Assembly (NCBI GenBank): GCA_951406725.2
Contig: OX597837.1
Span: forward strand, 6,200,001-6,264,000
Direction: 5' to 3'
DNA from: Octopus vulgaris
Lineage: Eukaryota
DNA length: 64,000 nucleotides
The translations under genes and the position numbers were made by a program. The notes beneath the pieces are model-generated. The model was not told where the DNA came from and did not search any database. It saw nothing but the letters and a program-made list of their open reading frames with translations. Below are positions 1 to 25,046 of the stretch, piece by piece. Position 1 is the first letter of the stretch, and each line of letters opens with the position of its first letter.

Positions 1-772
1 CAAAAGTTGCTATCAATATTATTATTCTCTGATATTCATTCGATCATTCCGTGTTAATTCTGGACTTTCTAGTTTGATGTCTGAAAAACTTATTTTGTAA
101 TAAAGTGAAAAGTTAAATAATTAAATTAGGATTTTCAATGAACAAAAACGAAACGGCACAAAATTAAATATAAAAAATCAATTAAACATTAGCAAAATTA
201 TCGAGACTAAAAATGTAATAAAATATATTCTCGAATATTTCGTTTATTTGTTTTGATATTTTTACATAAGTCAAATAACACATAATACATACTGAAATAC
301 ATATGTAACGTACACACAAGTACCTGCATGTATATATGCTTGTATGTGTATGTATGTAAGAGATGCATGTGTGTATGTATGTGTGTATAATTTATTGTCA
401 GTAAACGGTGCTTAAATAATGTATCACAGATTTAGTTTACATGCACACAGAATATACTGATTTGCTAACAGACTCAGACACACACACATATATATTTACA
501 TATATATATATATTATATATACATATATATATGTATGTATATATATATATATATATATATATAATAAATATTAGGGAATAAATCCAAACTTACAGGGAAA
601 AATCAGATTTAGGATTGAATCCAATTTTATAGTAAAATATTATATTATATTAAATTAGAGACAAAACCACTATTAGGCAAATCAAACAATGAAAAACGTA
701 AGTCAATACATATGATTAATTTATATTATTTAAATATATAACAAAATTATTAAAAAAATATAATTAATATCA

Positions 773-836
773 CACTACGATCGTTTCATGCCTGCTAATA
801 TCTTCAAATTTTTGAGTCGCAGTCATTCATCAGGTG
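773..836 (-). ncRNA. Type I minimal hammerhead ribozyme motif (H1, minus arm)
   Basis: Reverse complement of 899-962: CAC-CTGATGA-ATG..CAT-GAAA-CGATCG-TA-GTG. Confidence 0.7.
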
Positions 837-898
837 GTTTAAATATTTAAATATTTTTCTTGGCGAGGTTTAAACCTCACCAAGAAAAATATTTAAAC

Positions 899-962
899 CA
901 CCTGATGAATGACTGCGACTCAAAAATTTGAAGATGTTAGCAGGCATGAAACGATCGTAGTG
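899..962 (+). ncRNA. Type I minimal hammerhead ribozyme motif (H1, plus arm)
   Basis: Stem I CAC(899-901)/GTG(960-962); core CTGATGA 902-908; stem II ATG/CAT; GAAA 948-951; palindromic stem III CGATCG; cleavage triplet GTA. Confidence 0.72.
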
Positions 963-1103
963 TGATATTAATTATATTTTTTAATAATTTTGTTATATAT
1001 TTAAATAATATAAATTAATCATATGTATTAGCTTAAGTTTTTCGTTGTTTGATTTGCCTAATAGTGGTTTTGTCTCTAATTTAATATAATATATATATAT
1101 ATA

Positions 1104-1311
1104 CCGGAGTAAACACATAAATATGAAACAAGGTGAAAAAAAAGTACTCAAATACCAGGGGTAGAGTAATATGCTTTATTTAAAAGCAGCAGAAATTCAA
1201 AAAATCCTGTTACTCTGAGTTTCACGTTCCCGTTCGTCGGACAGTTTGACGAACGGGAACGTGAAACTCAGAGTAACAGGTTTTGTTGAATTTCTGCTGC
1301 TTTTAAATAAA

Positions 1312-1312
<1 letters not shown>
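1104..1312. mobile_element. Fold-back hammerhead element (family H2) in (TA)n
   Basis: Inverted repeat 1174-1312 around a short spacer, unpaired left extension, (TA)n flanks. Homologous copy at 21433-21633. Confidence 0.72.
1207..1244 (-). ncRNA. Compact hammerhead motif with CCGACGA core variant (H2)
   Basis: Minus strand reads CTGT-CCGACGA-ACG GGAA CGT-GAAA-CTCAGAG-TA-ACAG. All three stems pair. Confidence 0.68.
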
Positions 1313-1356
<44 letters not shown>

Positions 1357-1454
1357 TAAAGGCTCCTAAATAAAGATGCCAAGTGCTGGGAACAAAAAAA
1401 GGGGATGAATTTATCGAGAGTGAAAATCAAAAACATTTACCGATAATTTAAACA

Positions 1455-1528
1455 ACTCGTACCGCGGTTTCTGCTTCTTTCTAGCAAAACACAGAATATG
1501 TTTGCTAAGGCTGGCTTCATCAGCGAGT
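1455..1528 (-). ncRNA. Hammerhead motif (H3, inverted copy)
   Basis: Reverse complement of 2022-2095. Confidence 0.65.
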
Positions 1529-2021
1529 CGCCTGAATTTAATCGAGGTCCGCAGCGATGTGGGGCTATATGTTAAACCCGACTACTAGCAGATCTTAACT
1601 TTTCAAATCTCTGCGCAGACGTGTTTTGCTAGAAAGAAGCAGAAACCGCGGTACGAGTTGTTTAAATTATCGGTAAATGTTTTTGATTTTCACTCTCGAT
1701 AAATTCATCCCCTTTTTTGTTCCCAGCACTTGGCATCTTTATTTAGGAGCCTTTAATTGTATAACCACATGATTAATATTTTTCTATATGAATAATATTT
1801 TCGTCTTATGACTAATTCGTCTTTTGTGCTGGGCACCTGGTAGTAAATAATATTACTACCCTTCTTGTTTATATTCGCATACTACATGATGAATTTATTC
1901 GTAAAATTCTTCCCGGCATGCCCGTGTAAATTTTGCGTCTGCGCAGAGATTTGAAAAGTTAAGATCTGCTAGTAGTCGGGTGTAGTCCCACATCGCTGCA
2001 GACCTCGATTAAATTCAGGCG

Positions 2022-2095
2022 ACTCGCTGATGAAGCCAGCCTTAGCAAACATATTCTGTGTTTTGCTAGAAAGAAGCAGAAACCGCGGTACGAGT
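2022..2095 (+). ncRNA. Hammerhead motif (H3)
   Basis: Stem I ACTCG/CGAGT; CTGATGA 2027-2033; long stem II region with TAGCAAA/TTTGCTA hairpin; GAAA 2079-2082; palindromic CCGCGG; TA. Confidence 0.68.
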
Positions 2096-2222
2096 TGTTT
2101 TTGTTCCCAGCACTTTATTTAGGAGCCTTTAATTGTATAACCACATGATTAATATTTTCGTCTTATGACTAATTCGTCTTTTGTGCTGGGCACCTGGTAG
2201 TAAATAATATTATACCCTTCTT

Positions 2223-2262
<40 letters not shown>

Positions 2263-3320: not shown

Positions 3321-3323
<3 letters not shown>

Positions 3324-3568
3324 GATAAATATGGTACTTAAGTTGAGGCACCAGAATTTAGAACGGTATTATCCATACAAAATCAAAATAAGCTACAAGA
3401 ACATCCAGAGGTAATGCAGCACTACCGTTTCATGCAACTCCATTTAATTGAACAATGCAATCATTACATCAATTTAAAATGATGTAATGATTGCACTGTT
3501 CAATTAAATGGAGTTGCATCAAACGATCGTACTGCACTACCTCTGGCTATGTTTGTTGCTTATTTTGA

Positions 3569-3569
<1 letters not shown>
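3321..3569. mobile_element. Fold-back element with degenerate hammerhead (family H4) in (TA)n
   Basis: Inverted repeat 3382-3569 with left extension and (TA)n flanks. Arms carry TGATG...CAT(G/C)AAACGATCGTA, a truncated core. Confidence 0.55.
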
Positions 3570-3617
<48 letters not shown>

Positions 3618-10327: not shown

Positions 10328-10340
10328 TAAATTATGTGAC

Positions 10341-10458
10341 GCTTACAGAACCTAGGTTTCCTAATCGGTCACCCATCTAAGTACTCACTAGGCTCGACGT
10401 TGCTTAACTTCGGTGATCGGACGAGAACCGGTGCTTTCAACCTGATATGGCCGTGAGC
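10341..10458 (-). rRNA. Full-length divergent 5S rRNA copy (variant gene, pseudogene or SINE head)
   Basis: Minus strand GCTCACGGCCATATCAGGTTGAAAGCACCGGTTCTCGTCCGATCACCGAAGTTAAGCAACG...GATGGGTGACC...CTGTAAGC, 118 nt. No oligo-T terminator follows. Confidence 0.85.
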
Positions 10459-21389: not shown

Positions 21390-21432
21390 GTATATATATA
21401 TATTTATATATATATATGTATATGTATATATA

Positions 21433-21633
21433 CCGCAGTAAGCACATAAATGTGAATCAAGGTGGAAAAAAAGAGTACTCAAATACCAGAGGTAGTGTAA
21501 TATGCTTTACTTAAAAGCAGCAGAAATATAACAAAAGCCGTTACTCTTAGTTTCACGTTCCCATCCGTAGGAGGAACGGGAGCGCGAAACTCTAAGTAAC
21601 AGCTTTTGTTATATTTCTGCTGCTTTTAAATAA
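21433..21633. mobile_element. Family H2 fold-back copy (older)
   Basis: Co-linear with 1104-1312, same left end next to (TA)n, inversion at the ribozyme core. Confidence 0.72.
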
Positions 21634-22025
21634 CGTATATATAAATATATATGTATGTATATATTTATGGCCATATATATTATCTTCCTTATATATCGTC
21701 CTATATTTAATTATCATCAAATGTCTTTTTATCTTTTGTCACTAAATCAGCTGCTCTACTTCCCTACTTAATCTTTTTACCTATAGGCTATAAGGCGGTC
21801 TATCATCATTTGTTTTTAGTATTAGATTACGTCTGTCTTTAAAAACATTTCTATATCTTGTATTATTCTGTGTTTCACTTCAACTTTAATTATATTTCTA
21901 TTAGATTAATTTTTTTAACTCTGTGTATACGCATTGTTACTGTAGGCACACACATATATACATTCTTAACTGCACCCATACATACAAATATATATATATG
22001 TATGTATTTATATATATATGTATAT

Positions 22026-22100
<75 letters not shown>

Positions 22101-22103
<3 letters not shown>

Positions 22104-22531
22104 ATAATAACAAAGAGTGAAATTAATTAATTACGAAGTAATCATTAATTTCACCAAGTAGAATTCAGCATGTAAAGGACCAATTCATGGTAAGTTAAGT
22201 AATACTAAATAATTAGGGATCAGCAAACGATTTGCCTCACCACATATGGTTGAAGAATCCTACGCTGATGAGGAAAAATAGTCAGGTAAGGTATAATTAT
22301 TTATTATTTGTGCTCTATTCTGACTTAATTCCGAAACGGGCGTCCGTAGGCAACTTATTATAGAATGATGTTCGGCATTTTTTCCCCTTCTACTTGCGTG
22401 GTTTGCTTTTGAGTGCTTCGGTTTCTCTTGGATCTCCCTTTAAAGTAGAAAGAATAGCCAAGATTTTGACTGCTATTTCTAAACTTCAGTATGTGGTGGA
22501 GCAAATCGTTTGCTGATCCCTAATTATTTAG
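22101..22531. mobile_element. Hammerhead element family H6 with partial inverted repeat, in (TA)n
   Basis: Inverted repeat 22205-22246 / 22490-22531 with (TA)n flanks. Confidence 0.72.
22259..22350 (+). ncRNA. Type I hammerhead ribozyme motif with canonical core and GUC site (H6)
   Basis: Stem I CCTACG/CGTAGG; CTGATGA 22265-22271; stem II GGAA/TTCC extended by AGTCAG/CTGACT; GAAA 22333-22336; C-GGGC-G; TC, predicted cut after 22344. Confidence 0.82.
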
Positions 22532-23014
22532 AATATATATATATATATATATGTAAATTGAGATAGGGGTTGTGAGTGCAACCCTCCATGGGATAACATA
22601 TATAACCAATATACTGCCAGTACAGCACCCAACAAAATTAATACATAAATGTTAAGAACTGCGATGCAATTAATTCATTTATTGTATTATATGGGCAAAA
22701 GTAAAATGTTTTACCGCTAATTAATAATACAAAATAAGAAAATGGAGAAATACACCTTAATCAATGATCGACTACCAGATAATACCCAATCACATAATTT
22801 ATTAACCCACTACATATTAACATCAAGGTCAAACATAATAGTATAGAACAAAAGAATGCACATCAATGAGTAATATGATACAATAAGTACAATATGTATA
22901 AGTGAATATAAATAAATATAAATATAAATATAAACATATTTTGAAGAACTCTCTCTTTGTCAGACATAGGTTCCGCACAACTTGACAAAGTACGATTCGA
23001 AGTACTCCGAGGCA

Positions 23015-23869: not shown

Positions 23870-24987
23870 GACGAGGGGCTGCTGAGAAGTCCCTGGATTT
23901 GACTAGAAGGAAGTAGAAGGGGATCAGTTAATTATGATTTTGATCAAGATTCACTCACTTATTACTGATGTCCTTCAGTTTTTCTAAACCCAGGAATCGA
24001 AACCACAATCTTCCGATCATGATGCTGACACCCTAACAACTAAGCCACGTACCTCCACTATTAATTATATTGCAAACTTTTATTTATTCATCAGTGTTTA
24101 ATGGAATTTACACGAAATCCAATCAGTTTGTTATAAATACAAGCCATCCTTTAATGCTCGAATTATAAAAATGTAATTCCCGCAAAGCCAAACTTTTGTA
24201 TACCTATATTACGAACCACTGTTTGCATGTTTGTGAATTTGTGCTGTAAATGTCCACAATCCTTTTTGAAAGTTCTTCTTTGTTTACTCAGTAAATAATG
24301 CAAGAGGTTAGACCCATATTTAATTGTATACATAATTTAGAATTCCTATAAAGGGATTTATGCATACGTTGTTGATTCAGTATGTTCTATTCAAGCCTGT
24401 AGAATTTTATTAATCCTCCAGGGACAACTTCGAACCGCAGTGAGAAATCCAGCATAAAAATTACGATGTTTTGTGTAACGTTTCAAGATAAAAGGCGCGA
24501 GCGTGGACGTGTGGTAAGAATGGTCGCAGGCATGGCTTTGTGGTAAGAAGTTTGGTTCGCAGCTACATGTTTCTGAGTTCGGTCCCACTGTGTAGCATCT
24601 GGATATTGGGTTTTCTACATTGTGGCTAGATTTGGCAGTCTGAAACTAAAAGAAACCTGTCATATATATATATTTACCTTATATTAAACTTTTTATACTT
24701 TTTGATAGTTATATAATTTAAAGAAAAAAAATTATTAAAATAAATAAATAAATAAAATAAAATAATAATAATAATATATATATATATTTATATATATATA
24801 TTTAAAATTTATTAGTTTAAATTATTAATTTAAATAATTTTTAAAATTTTAACTTTAATTTAAATATTTTAATTTGGAATTTTATATTTTATATTTTTCA
24901 TATATTTTTAAATTAATTTTATTTCTATGTATTGGCTTATGATTTTCACTGTTTGATTTGCCTAGTAGTGGTTTTATCTCTAATTTA

Positions 24988-25046
<59 letters not shown>

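Follow-up and report, generated by a model that had tools for sequence, protein, structure and literature searches.

The window analysed here, a 64,000-nucleotide (nt) stretch of the Octopus vulgaris genome (assembly GCA_951406725.2, contig OX597837.1, positions 6,200,001 to 6,264,000), carries at positions 564-2225 three mutually unrelated head-to-head fold-backs, designated H1, H2 and H3, with only (TA)n between them. The best explanation of the whole, which we regard as likely, is that three independent insertions were made in (TA)n by proteins of Neptune-like Penelope-like elements (PLEs). H1 and H2 are almost certainly pseudo-long terminal repeat (pLTR) ends of PLEs encoding reverse transcriptase (RT) together with an endonuclease of GIY-YIG type, and H3 is, as judged by its structure, a non-LTR retrozyme. 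A preliminary description, made from the sequence alone, had reported three unrelated inverted-repeat elements chained through (TA)n, and both the sequence and a repeat finder agree with it. It was right about the fold-back structure; the spliced junction of H1 and the pairing of near and far arm ends escaped it. The elements themselves are of a known kind, and it is these two features for which we found no published account.

The 2.8-Gb, AT-rich genome was searched by similarity and by pattern rather than as a full census, and the loci discussed below are hence search-selected. H1, H2 and H3 are all dispersed repeats, with 832, 504 and 30 first-look candidates, respectively, and 1270 for the sequence upstream of H2; these figures are not copy numbers. 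The closest named protein relatives of the window's elements are from Octopus. The preliminary description had advised looking for autonomous PLEs that share the pLTRs, and protein-coding PLEs of this kind were found for both H1 and H2. The H1 element (locus L132, G000:C1:8126000-8134000), reached through longer H1 copies via the sequence upstream of one locus, consists of an H1 pLTR, an open reading frame (ORF), a 2-kb 3' untranslated region (UTR), a second pLTR and then (TA)n. The ORF begins 275 nt past the hammerhead cleavage site and has RT, cysteine (Cys)-knuckle and GIY-YIG motifs, and is broken by one frameshift and stops. Between its thumb and endonuclease lies an Asn/Lys-rich low-complexity stretch (L132:4400-4700) resembling the N-rich inserts of rotifer Penelopes (PMC3846280). 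L212 is a classic H1 partial tandem, and L277 is also tandem.

Older H2 copies are tied through their upstream sequence to RT and endonuclease in L131 and L278. A protein search with H2, in which 150 of 14,816 candidates were scored, returned a large number that tie in score and have open frames of 727 codons. Eight such loci were fetched; each terminates with an H2 pLTR followed by (TA)n, and in six a whole 5' pLTR is present as well. The intact H2 protein has 711 amino acids (aa), with YRDD and endonuclease motifs, and 2,049 relatives; its Atlas neighbours fall into the clusters HTH_animal, GIY-YIG and RVT_1 at 0.96-0.99. Among 11 homologues P0011 alone matched GIY-YIG, and the H1 endonuclease, used as a query among longer proteins, yielded no homologue. 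This intact subfamily, H2b (L277-L285, e.g. L279:1092-3224), has been very active recently: its copies are numerous, share the same scores and an open frame of 727 codons, and frequently lie as head-to-head pairs a few kb apart.

Partial tandems, adjoining inverted truncated copies and an optional tail are all present in these families, and the inverted pLTR structure anticipated in the preliminary description recurs in 73 two-arm insertions with two fixed 3' ends. The hammerheads lie inside the pLTRs of H1 and H2 elements with RT and GIY-YIG, so that their earlier designation as PLE-type was correct. The label Neptune-like for H1 and H2 is drawn from the Cys linker and the microsatellite bias described in PMC8557442, and should be read as a tentative placement. 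The residues C562, C564, C570 and C576 are invariant in 114 aligned relatives and also occur in H1, with a spacing unlike the CX2-5CxxC given in PMC8557442; a Cys linker of this kind occurs in Nematis too.

Insertion ends were surveyed in 124 H1, 50 H2 and 30 H3 loci. The 3' ends cluster in two zones past the cleavage site, near (P) and far (D), at ~+130 and ~+215 in H1, +36 and +107 in H2, and +106 and +220 in H3. A run of (TA)4 or more follows 238 of the 256 distinct zone ends, compared with 6.3% and 7.7% at random positions, which supports the repeated targeting of (TA)n suggested in the preliminary description. Without the zone filter, 151 of 172 alignment ends in H1, 38 of 41 in H2 and 24 of 35 in H3 were followed by TA, nearly all of them in the two zones; the H3 ends without TA include ends internal to arrays. 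Judged from these positions, the zones represent two putative RT starts whose spacing equals the PLE tail (compare PMC11167929). The start sites cannot be put down to TA microhomology alone, because the first target base at the H2 P site (position 36) differs from the RNA and GGTCT follows the D site of H2. Copy 5' ends at the hammerhead cleavage site were looked for and not found as a class; H1 copies cross the uncut site to exon 1.

Two-arm insertions combine one P end with one D end in 45 of 46 cases in H1, 19 of 19 in H2 and eight of eight in H3, or 72 of 73 in total (binomial probability 8e-21 at p = 0.5). Among insertions with a single arm, 65 end at P and 51 at D. All three elements in the window follow the pairing. 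The left arm of H1 (564-875, minus strand; hammerhead 836-773, core 833-776; splice junction 855/854), a putative spliced 5'-end cDNA of a Neptune-like PLE mRNA, would have been primed at the D start ~215 nt past the cleavage site, and its right arm (868-1088, plus strand; core 902-959; junction 888/889), which has the same spliced 5' end, at the P start ~130 nt past it; the arms overlap by 8 nt at 868-875. H2 consists of a left arm (1104-1247, minus strand) with a D end at +107 and a right arm (1248-1312, plus strand) with a P end at +36, the latter holding the 3' half of a hammerhead only. The order is reversed in H3, where the left arm (1353-1621, minus strand; core 1523-1460) has the P end, at +106, and the right arm (1621-2225, plus strand) the D end, at +221; this right arm is longer than one 445-nt monomer, has several short deletions and carries a 3' hammerhead half at 1621-1663 and a full core at 2027-2090. 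Unstranded TA repeats delimit the elements: the (TA)n target on the left (538-563) and right (2226-2256) flanks, (TA)7 common to H1 and H2 (1089-1103) and (TA)20 common to H2 and H3 (1313-1352).

The two arms of an H1 insertion match at 316 of 329 subfamily sites, with 144.5 disagreements expected, and those of H3 at 23 of 24. The splice state is the same in both arms of all 13 H1 pairs that span the junction (10 spliced, 3 unspliced). Among 45 H1 pairs the arm reaching further 5' is P in 23 and D in 16, with six ties, and the P arm is therefore no copy of the D arm. Both target strands were probably primed on one RNA, one at each start. In H2 two-arm loci the arms often differ at stem-I positions +5 and +9 past the cleavage site, for which two templates, quasi-palindrome correction and assembly error are candidate explanations.

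The full H1 element has a ~700-nt intron (GTATGT...TTTTAG, thus GT..AG) directly upstream of the hammerhead, with no repeat at the intron ends. Its length is 694-702 nt in six of the nine donors having an acceptor in reach and 831-966 nt in the other three. Exact junctions across the genome number 263 spliced and 88 unspliced, with none in reversed controls. Three exon-end variants and the six commonest H1 hammerhead variants each occur in both splice states, so intron removal has recurred. In all 30 position-ordered loci the spliced copies have 17-32 nt left of exon 1, and the 18 longest spliced hits have 35 to ~52 nt, which places their start ~31 nt downstream of a TATAAA. Of 15 unspliced donors, by contrast, 11 extend upstream by over 120 nt; the intron is present in all 11 of these copies and absent at the 263 short-copy junctions. 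In L132 the 5' pLTR is spliced and the 3' pLTR unspliced. The spliced junctions point to sense mRNA as the template, and the H1 stumps are very probably cDNAs of spliced mRNA 5' ends. What has been called intron retention thus looks positional in H1, with only the cap-proximal intron being spliced. A second upstream exon was considered and dropped, the extra bases being a palindromic join. At L213:1066-2071 a unit made up of a spliced H1 fold-back and its TA spacer is triplicated with a 346-nt period, possibly a first step from stump to satellite.

H3 differs in being a 445-nt non-coding unit in 1-10 tandem copies. One TA-flanked insertion has 10 cleavage motifs spaced 443-445 nt apart, and no ORF of at least 130 aa was present in the array interior. 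The preliminary description had taken all three families as non-autonomous, which is apt for H3, a tandem retrozyme with no ORF; H1 and H2 are stumps of protein-coding PLEs. H3 carries the same insertion signature as these two, namely two fixed 3' ends, P+D inversions and (TA)n, and only one of 26 H3 5' ends lies at the cleavage site (position 0). It is likely that H3 is mobilised in trans by a PLE.

Type I cores (CUGAUGA..GAAAC..GUA with stems I-III) are canonical in four cases, two in H1 and two in H3, both of which contain CUGANGA, GAAA and UH with stems I-III. The preliminary description had counted five complete hammerheads; the fifth, in the left arm of H2 (minus strand, 1240-1211), reads CCGACGA at 1240-1234, a U4C variant and not a strict canonical core. 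This arm belongs to an older subfamily of the PLE, the intact subfamily of which carries CUGAUGA, and CCGAYGA was found in 35 of 41 H2 contexts read. A hammerhead descriptor matched six times within the window, whereas 40 dinucleotide-block shuffles averaged 0.1 matches (maximum 2). An Rfam scan listed no hammerhead family among the best 150 of 247 matches, which comprised hairpin matches to microRNA models and a 5S rRNA. Minimum-free-energy folds of monomers differ from the hammerhead fold (z -0.86, -0.89 and +0.98), as expected because the motifs are minimal and of dimer type. Stem III is a short palindrome in all three families, stem II of H1 shows one compensatory change between subfamilies (C-G to U-A), and stem II of H3 opens with an A.A mismatch. 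Dimer-type architecture with a short palindromic stem III has been described for PLE hammerheads, the minimal forms of which cleave weakly in vitro (PMC4209133). On core and stems, the H1 and H3 hammerheads are candidate ribozymes. The U4C core is fixed in older H2 subfamilies (loci L061-L130) and also occurs in several unrelated hammerhead hits in the flanks; it may be either a tolerated natural variant or a sign of relaxed selection on cleavage. More than 10 further unrelated hammerhead families with a palindromic stem III were chance finds in 0.83 Mb of fetched loci.

Insertion may proceed as follows. A PLE protein would nick both strands of palindromic (TA)n, and reverse transcription would begin at two internal points of a single sense RNA, P and D. 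Both cDNAs would extend 5'-ward through the uncut hammerhead and be joined head to head, usually via a few overlapping bases, to give a fold-back with a tail on one end and (TA)n on both. Since each of the mRNA's two pLTR copies would contain P and D, priming within the 3' copy would yield ordinary 5'-truncated insertions in which the intron is kept and passed on; priming in the cap-proximal pLTR would run off at the spliced 5' end after 230-330 nt and leave abundant short stumps. Later elements could land alongside because each insertion would leave fresh (TA)n. In LINE-1 twin priming, both target strands likewise prime cDNA on one RNA to give a 5' inversion, with the two cDNAs spanning separate parts of the RNA. 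Unlike these, the octopus arms overlap and start at two fixed sites, which gives a palindrome with a tail. Coupled double priming fits a PLE protein, a predicted dimer, by which both strands are cut and extended (PMC11167929). Whether this extends to PLEs in general is, in our estimate, evenly balanced: a dimer would prime both strands on one sense RNA, each active site taking one of two fixed internal starts, and make the inverted arm and one-sided tail in one step. Retention of the pLTR intron would then be positional: splicing would affect the cap-proximal intron alone and the transmitted copy would be the one at the 3' end, so that neither an antisense nor an unspliced template would be required. 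Priming in the 5' pLTR would produce the short spliced stumps, and solo pLTRs, perhaps also retrozymes, could arise by this route.

The main rival of coupled priming is palindrome loss, in which the arms would be primed independently and the P+P and D+D products, as perfect palindromes running on into the (TA)n flanks, would be deleted or mis-assembled. Perfect palindromes are unstable and difficult to assemble, and some inverted arms in the assembly appear error-rich (L032). Such a filter would, however, need a loss of more than ~97% to yield 72 of 73, and pairs whose overlap is short, or whose arms are unequal by hundreds of bases (L095, L098, L099, L186), follow the P+D rule as well, as do the 40-bp arms of H2. 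The use of both sites by single arms also speaks against it, and we regard this explanation as unlikely. Fold-backs might instead form by self-priming (snap-back), whether on the first cDNA or with an antisense template, a hypothesis in print for rotifer Penelopes (PMC3846280), and short palindromes and overlaps do occur at many apexes. Precise GT..AG removal, however, requires a sense RNA, which argues against the antisense version, and in 23 of 45 H1 pairs each arm has sequence absent from the other. Snap-back is refuted for those pairs and is highly improbable as the general cause, although it may act at joining.

The intron-less H1 copies could also descend from one or a few non-autonomous masters, arising by a single splicing or deletion and amplified in the manner of short interspersed elements, rather than being fresh copies of mRNA. 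The structure of short H1 is very uniform, and the triplication at L213 means that spliced copies can be re-copied as DNA. The presence of three exon-end and six hammerhead variants in both forms argues against a single spliced master, as do the lack of the upstream TATA region in spliced copies and the ORF-bearing full-length L132, which opens with the spliced junction; we consider such masters quite unlikely. The preliminary description had proposed non-autonomous ribozyme retroelements spreading as hammerhead-cleaved or circular RNAs, in one chained system. This is partly true of H3, the 10 tandem units of which in one TA-flanked insertion are like those of non-LTR retrozymes (PMC7229834). 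H1 and H2, however, continue into PLE ORFs, which refutes the reading for both, and copy ends lie off the cleavage site in H3 and beyond it in H1. Chains of different families are also rare, and as a whole we find this proposal very unlikely.

Several results weigh against the preferred account of insertion in (TA)n by Neptune-like PLE proteins with coupled priming on sense mRNA. Pfam searches with five ORF pieces and PDB searches with two sequences and one profile gave no match. No parent element was found for H3: a pattern search, at one position and by exact match, for a spliced or parental form with other sequence directly upstream of the hammerhead gave 0, and a low-stringency comparison with the remaining loci turned up a single match of 30 nt. 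Among the H1 pairs there is one P+P case, and a script did the pair calling, requiring each end to lie within the P or D zones, with a check by eye in part. The H2 arms match at 81 of 116 polymorphic cells (35 disagreements, 49.7 being expected if the arms were independent), which is weaker agreement than the one-RNA model predicts, and agreement between arms could also come from one subfamily being active at a time. The start site of the H1 mRNA is deduced from copy ends and TATAAA alone, and the spliced copy L233 extends ~10 nt beyond it. No spliced H2 form occurred in 41 upstream contexts, and the splicing point hence rests on one family; short H2 copies mostly end at most 65 nt upstream of the cleavage site. 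Among the sequencing runs recorded as RNA, none contains the stretch. A 700-nt GT..AG skip in the sequencing run X1, guessed to be RNA, recurs in a probable DNA run (four runs were compared), and such skips were left out as evidence because the skip also exists as DNA. Finally, PLEs are reported to retrotranspose intron-containing host genes and ORF introns (PMC3846280), and the positional model leaves these retained introns unexplained.

The chain of three is an uncommon pile-up of separate insertions in a TA-rich stretch and not a unit, because abutment of different families is so rare: outside the window one of 234 TA-followed ends (L095) adjoined a different one of five tested families, so that the single ribozyme-retroelement system of the preliminary description falls away. 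L002 has a TA-followed end adjoining another H1. With 139 TA runs in the 64 kb of the window, the three elements could pile up since each insertion leaves (TA)n at both ends. H2, the most diverged of the three, probably came first. Further elements lie nearby. A fourth hammerhead family of PLE type, H4 (22102-22532; canonical core on the plus strand at 22265-22344; 662 first-look candidates), is TA-flanked and has an inverted arm at the far site and an arm at the near site, the same two-end pattern as H1-H3. H5 (3321-3576) is a TA-flanked fold-back with arms unequal in length, each holding the hammerhead 3' half alone. An older H2 fold-back and an H1 remnant occupy 21417-21640 and 24878-25002, and a 5S rRNA gene or pseudogene was detected by the Rfam scan at 10340-10458 (minus strand, 95 bits). 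Roughly 2-4 kb to the left of the window lies a 667-codon open frame with non-LTR RT motifs (L136:4344-6344, minus strand).

For PLEs, hammerheads, inversions, tails and a bias towards microsatellites have already been published, as have retrozymes derived from them, and the comparisons drawn here refer to main texts. Endonuclease-bearing (EN+) PLEs of the Neptune clade have one ORF with RT, a Cys-rich linker and, at the C terminus, GIY-YIG, a hammerhead in the pLTR, partial tandems forming the pLTRs, an adjoining inverted 5'-truncated copy, a tail at one end and a microsatellite bias (PMC8557442). H1 and H2 share these ORF, pLTR, inversion, tail and microsatellite features, with tails of 70-115 nt in the octopus families compared with 30-40 nt there. 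The one-end tail is published only as frequent (PMC8557442, PMC3846280), and the strict near/far pairing of the octopus arms is not stated in the main text of PMC8557442. Intron retention is described there as a PLE hallmark of unknown significance, whereas spliced copies outnumber unspliced ones in octopus H1; retention in genomic copies is a reported property of PLEs and not a class definition. The layout of H1 is that of Drosophila virilis Penelope, which has a start site, a 46-bp exon, a 75-bp 5'-UTR intron ending before hammerhead helix I, and an ORF, with most transcripts spliced (PMC2377424, PMC4209133). Exon 1 is of similar size (~37-52 nt in H1) and the intron far longer, at ~700 nt; the genomic copies of D. 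virilis Penelope are described as intron-keeping, and the spliced ones that are frequent in H1 go unmentioned in those texts. Poseidon_Ac protein cuts and extends both strands at AT-rich DNA in vitro, with an uncut RNA template and a predicted dimer, and has two internal RT starts whose spacing equals the tail; in pooled reads the start site shows no difference between strands, coupling within an event not being examined (PMC11167929). RT starts lie inside the ORF in Poseidon_Ac and in the 5' UTR in the octopus families. Non-LTR retrozymes are built of tandem units that lack coding sequence and have a single type I hammerhead apiece, and they are proposed to be derived from and mobilised by PLEs (PMC7229834; bioRxiv 10.64898/2026.07.22.740005). 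H3 is like them in its units and hammerheads, but in H3 the insertion signature of PLEs can be seen directly; neither H1 nor H2 is a retrozyme. The preliminary description had known of no account of these families, and we found none in a largely open-access literature, nor any mention of genomic PLE copies that are spliced or of a strict pairing of near and far ends.

Which polarity the template has, why introns are retained and how the inverted arms and tails arise are named open questions of PLE biology (PMC3846280, PMC8557442). Hundreds of young copies in the octopus genome keep a record of how PLEs copy themselves. The spliced H1 junctions mark sense mRNA as the probable template and speak against antisense self-priming for the H1 family, and splicing confined to the 5' end offers a simple reason for the inheritance of the pLTR intron. 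The pairing of 72 in 73 insertions makes a sharp prediction for the existing in vitro PLE assay, and H2b, being intact, recently very active and directed to a defined target, may serve as an experimental reagent.

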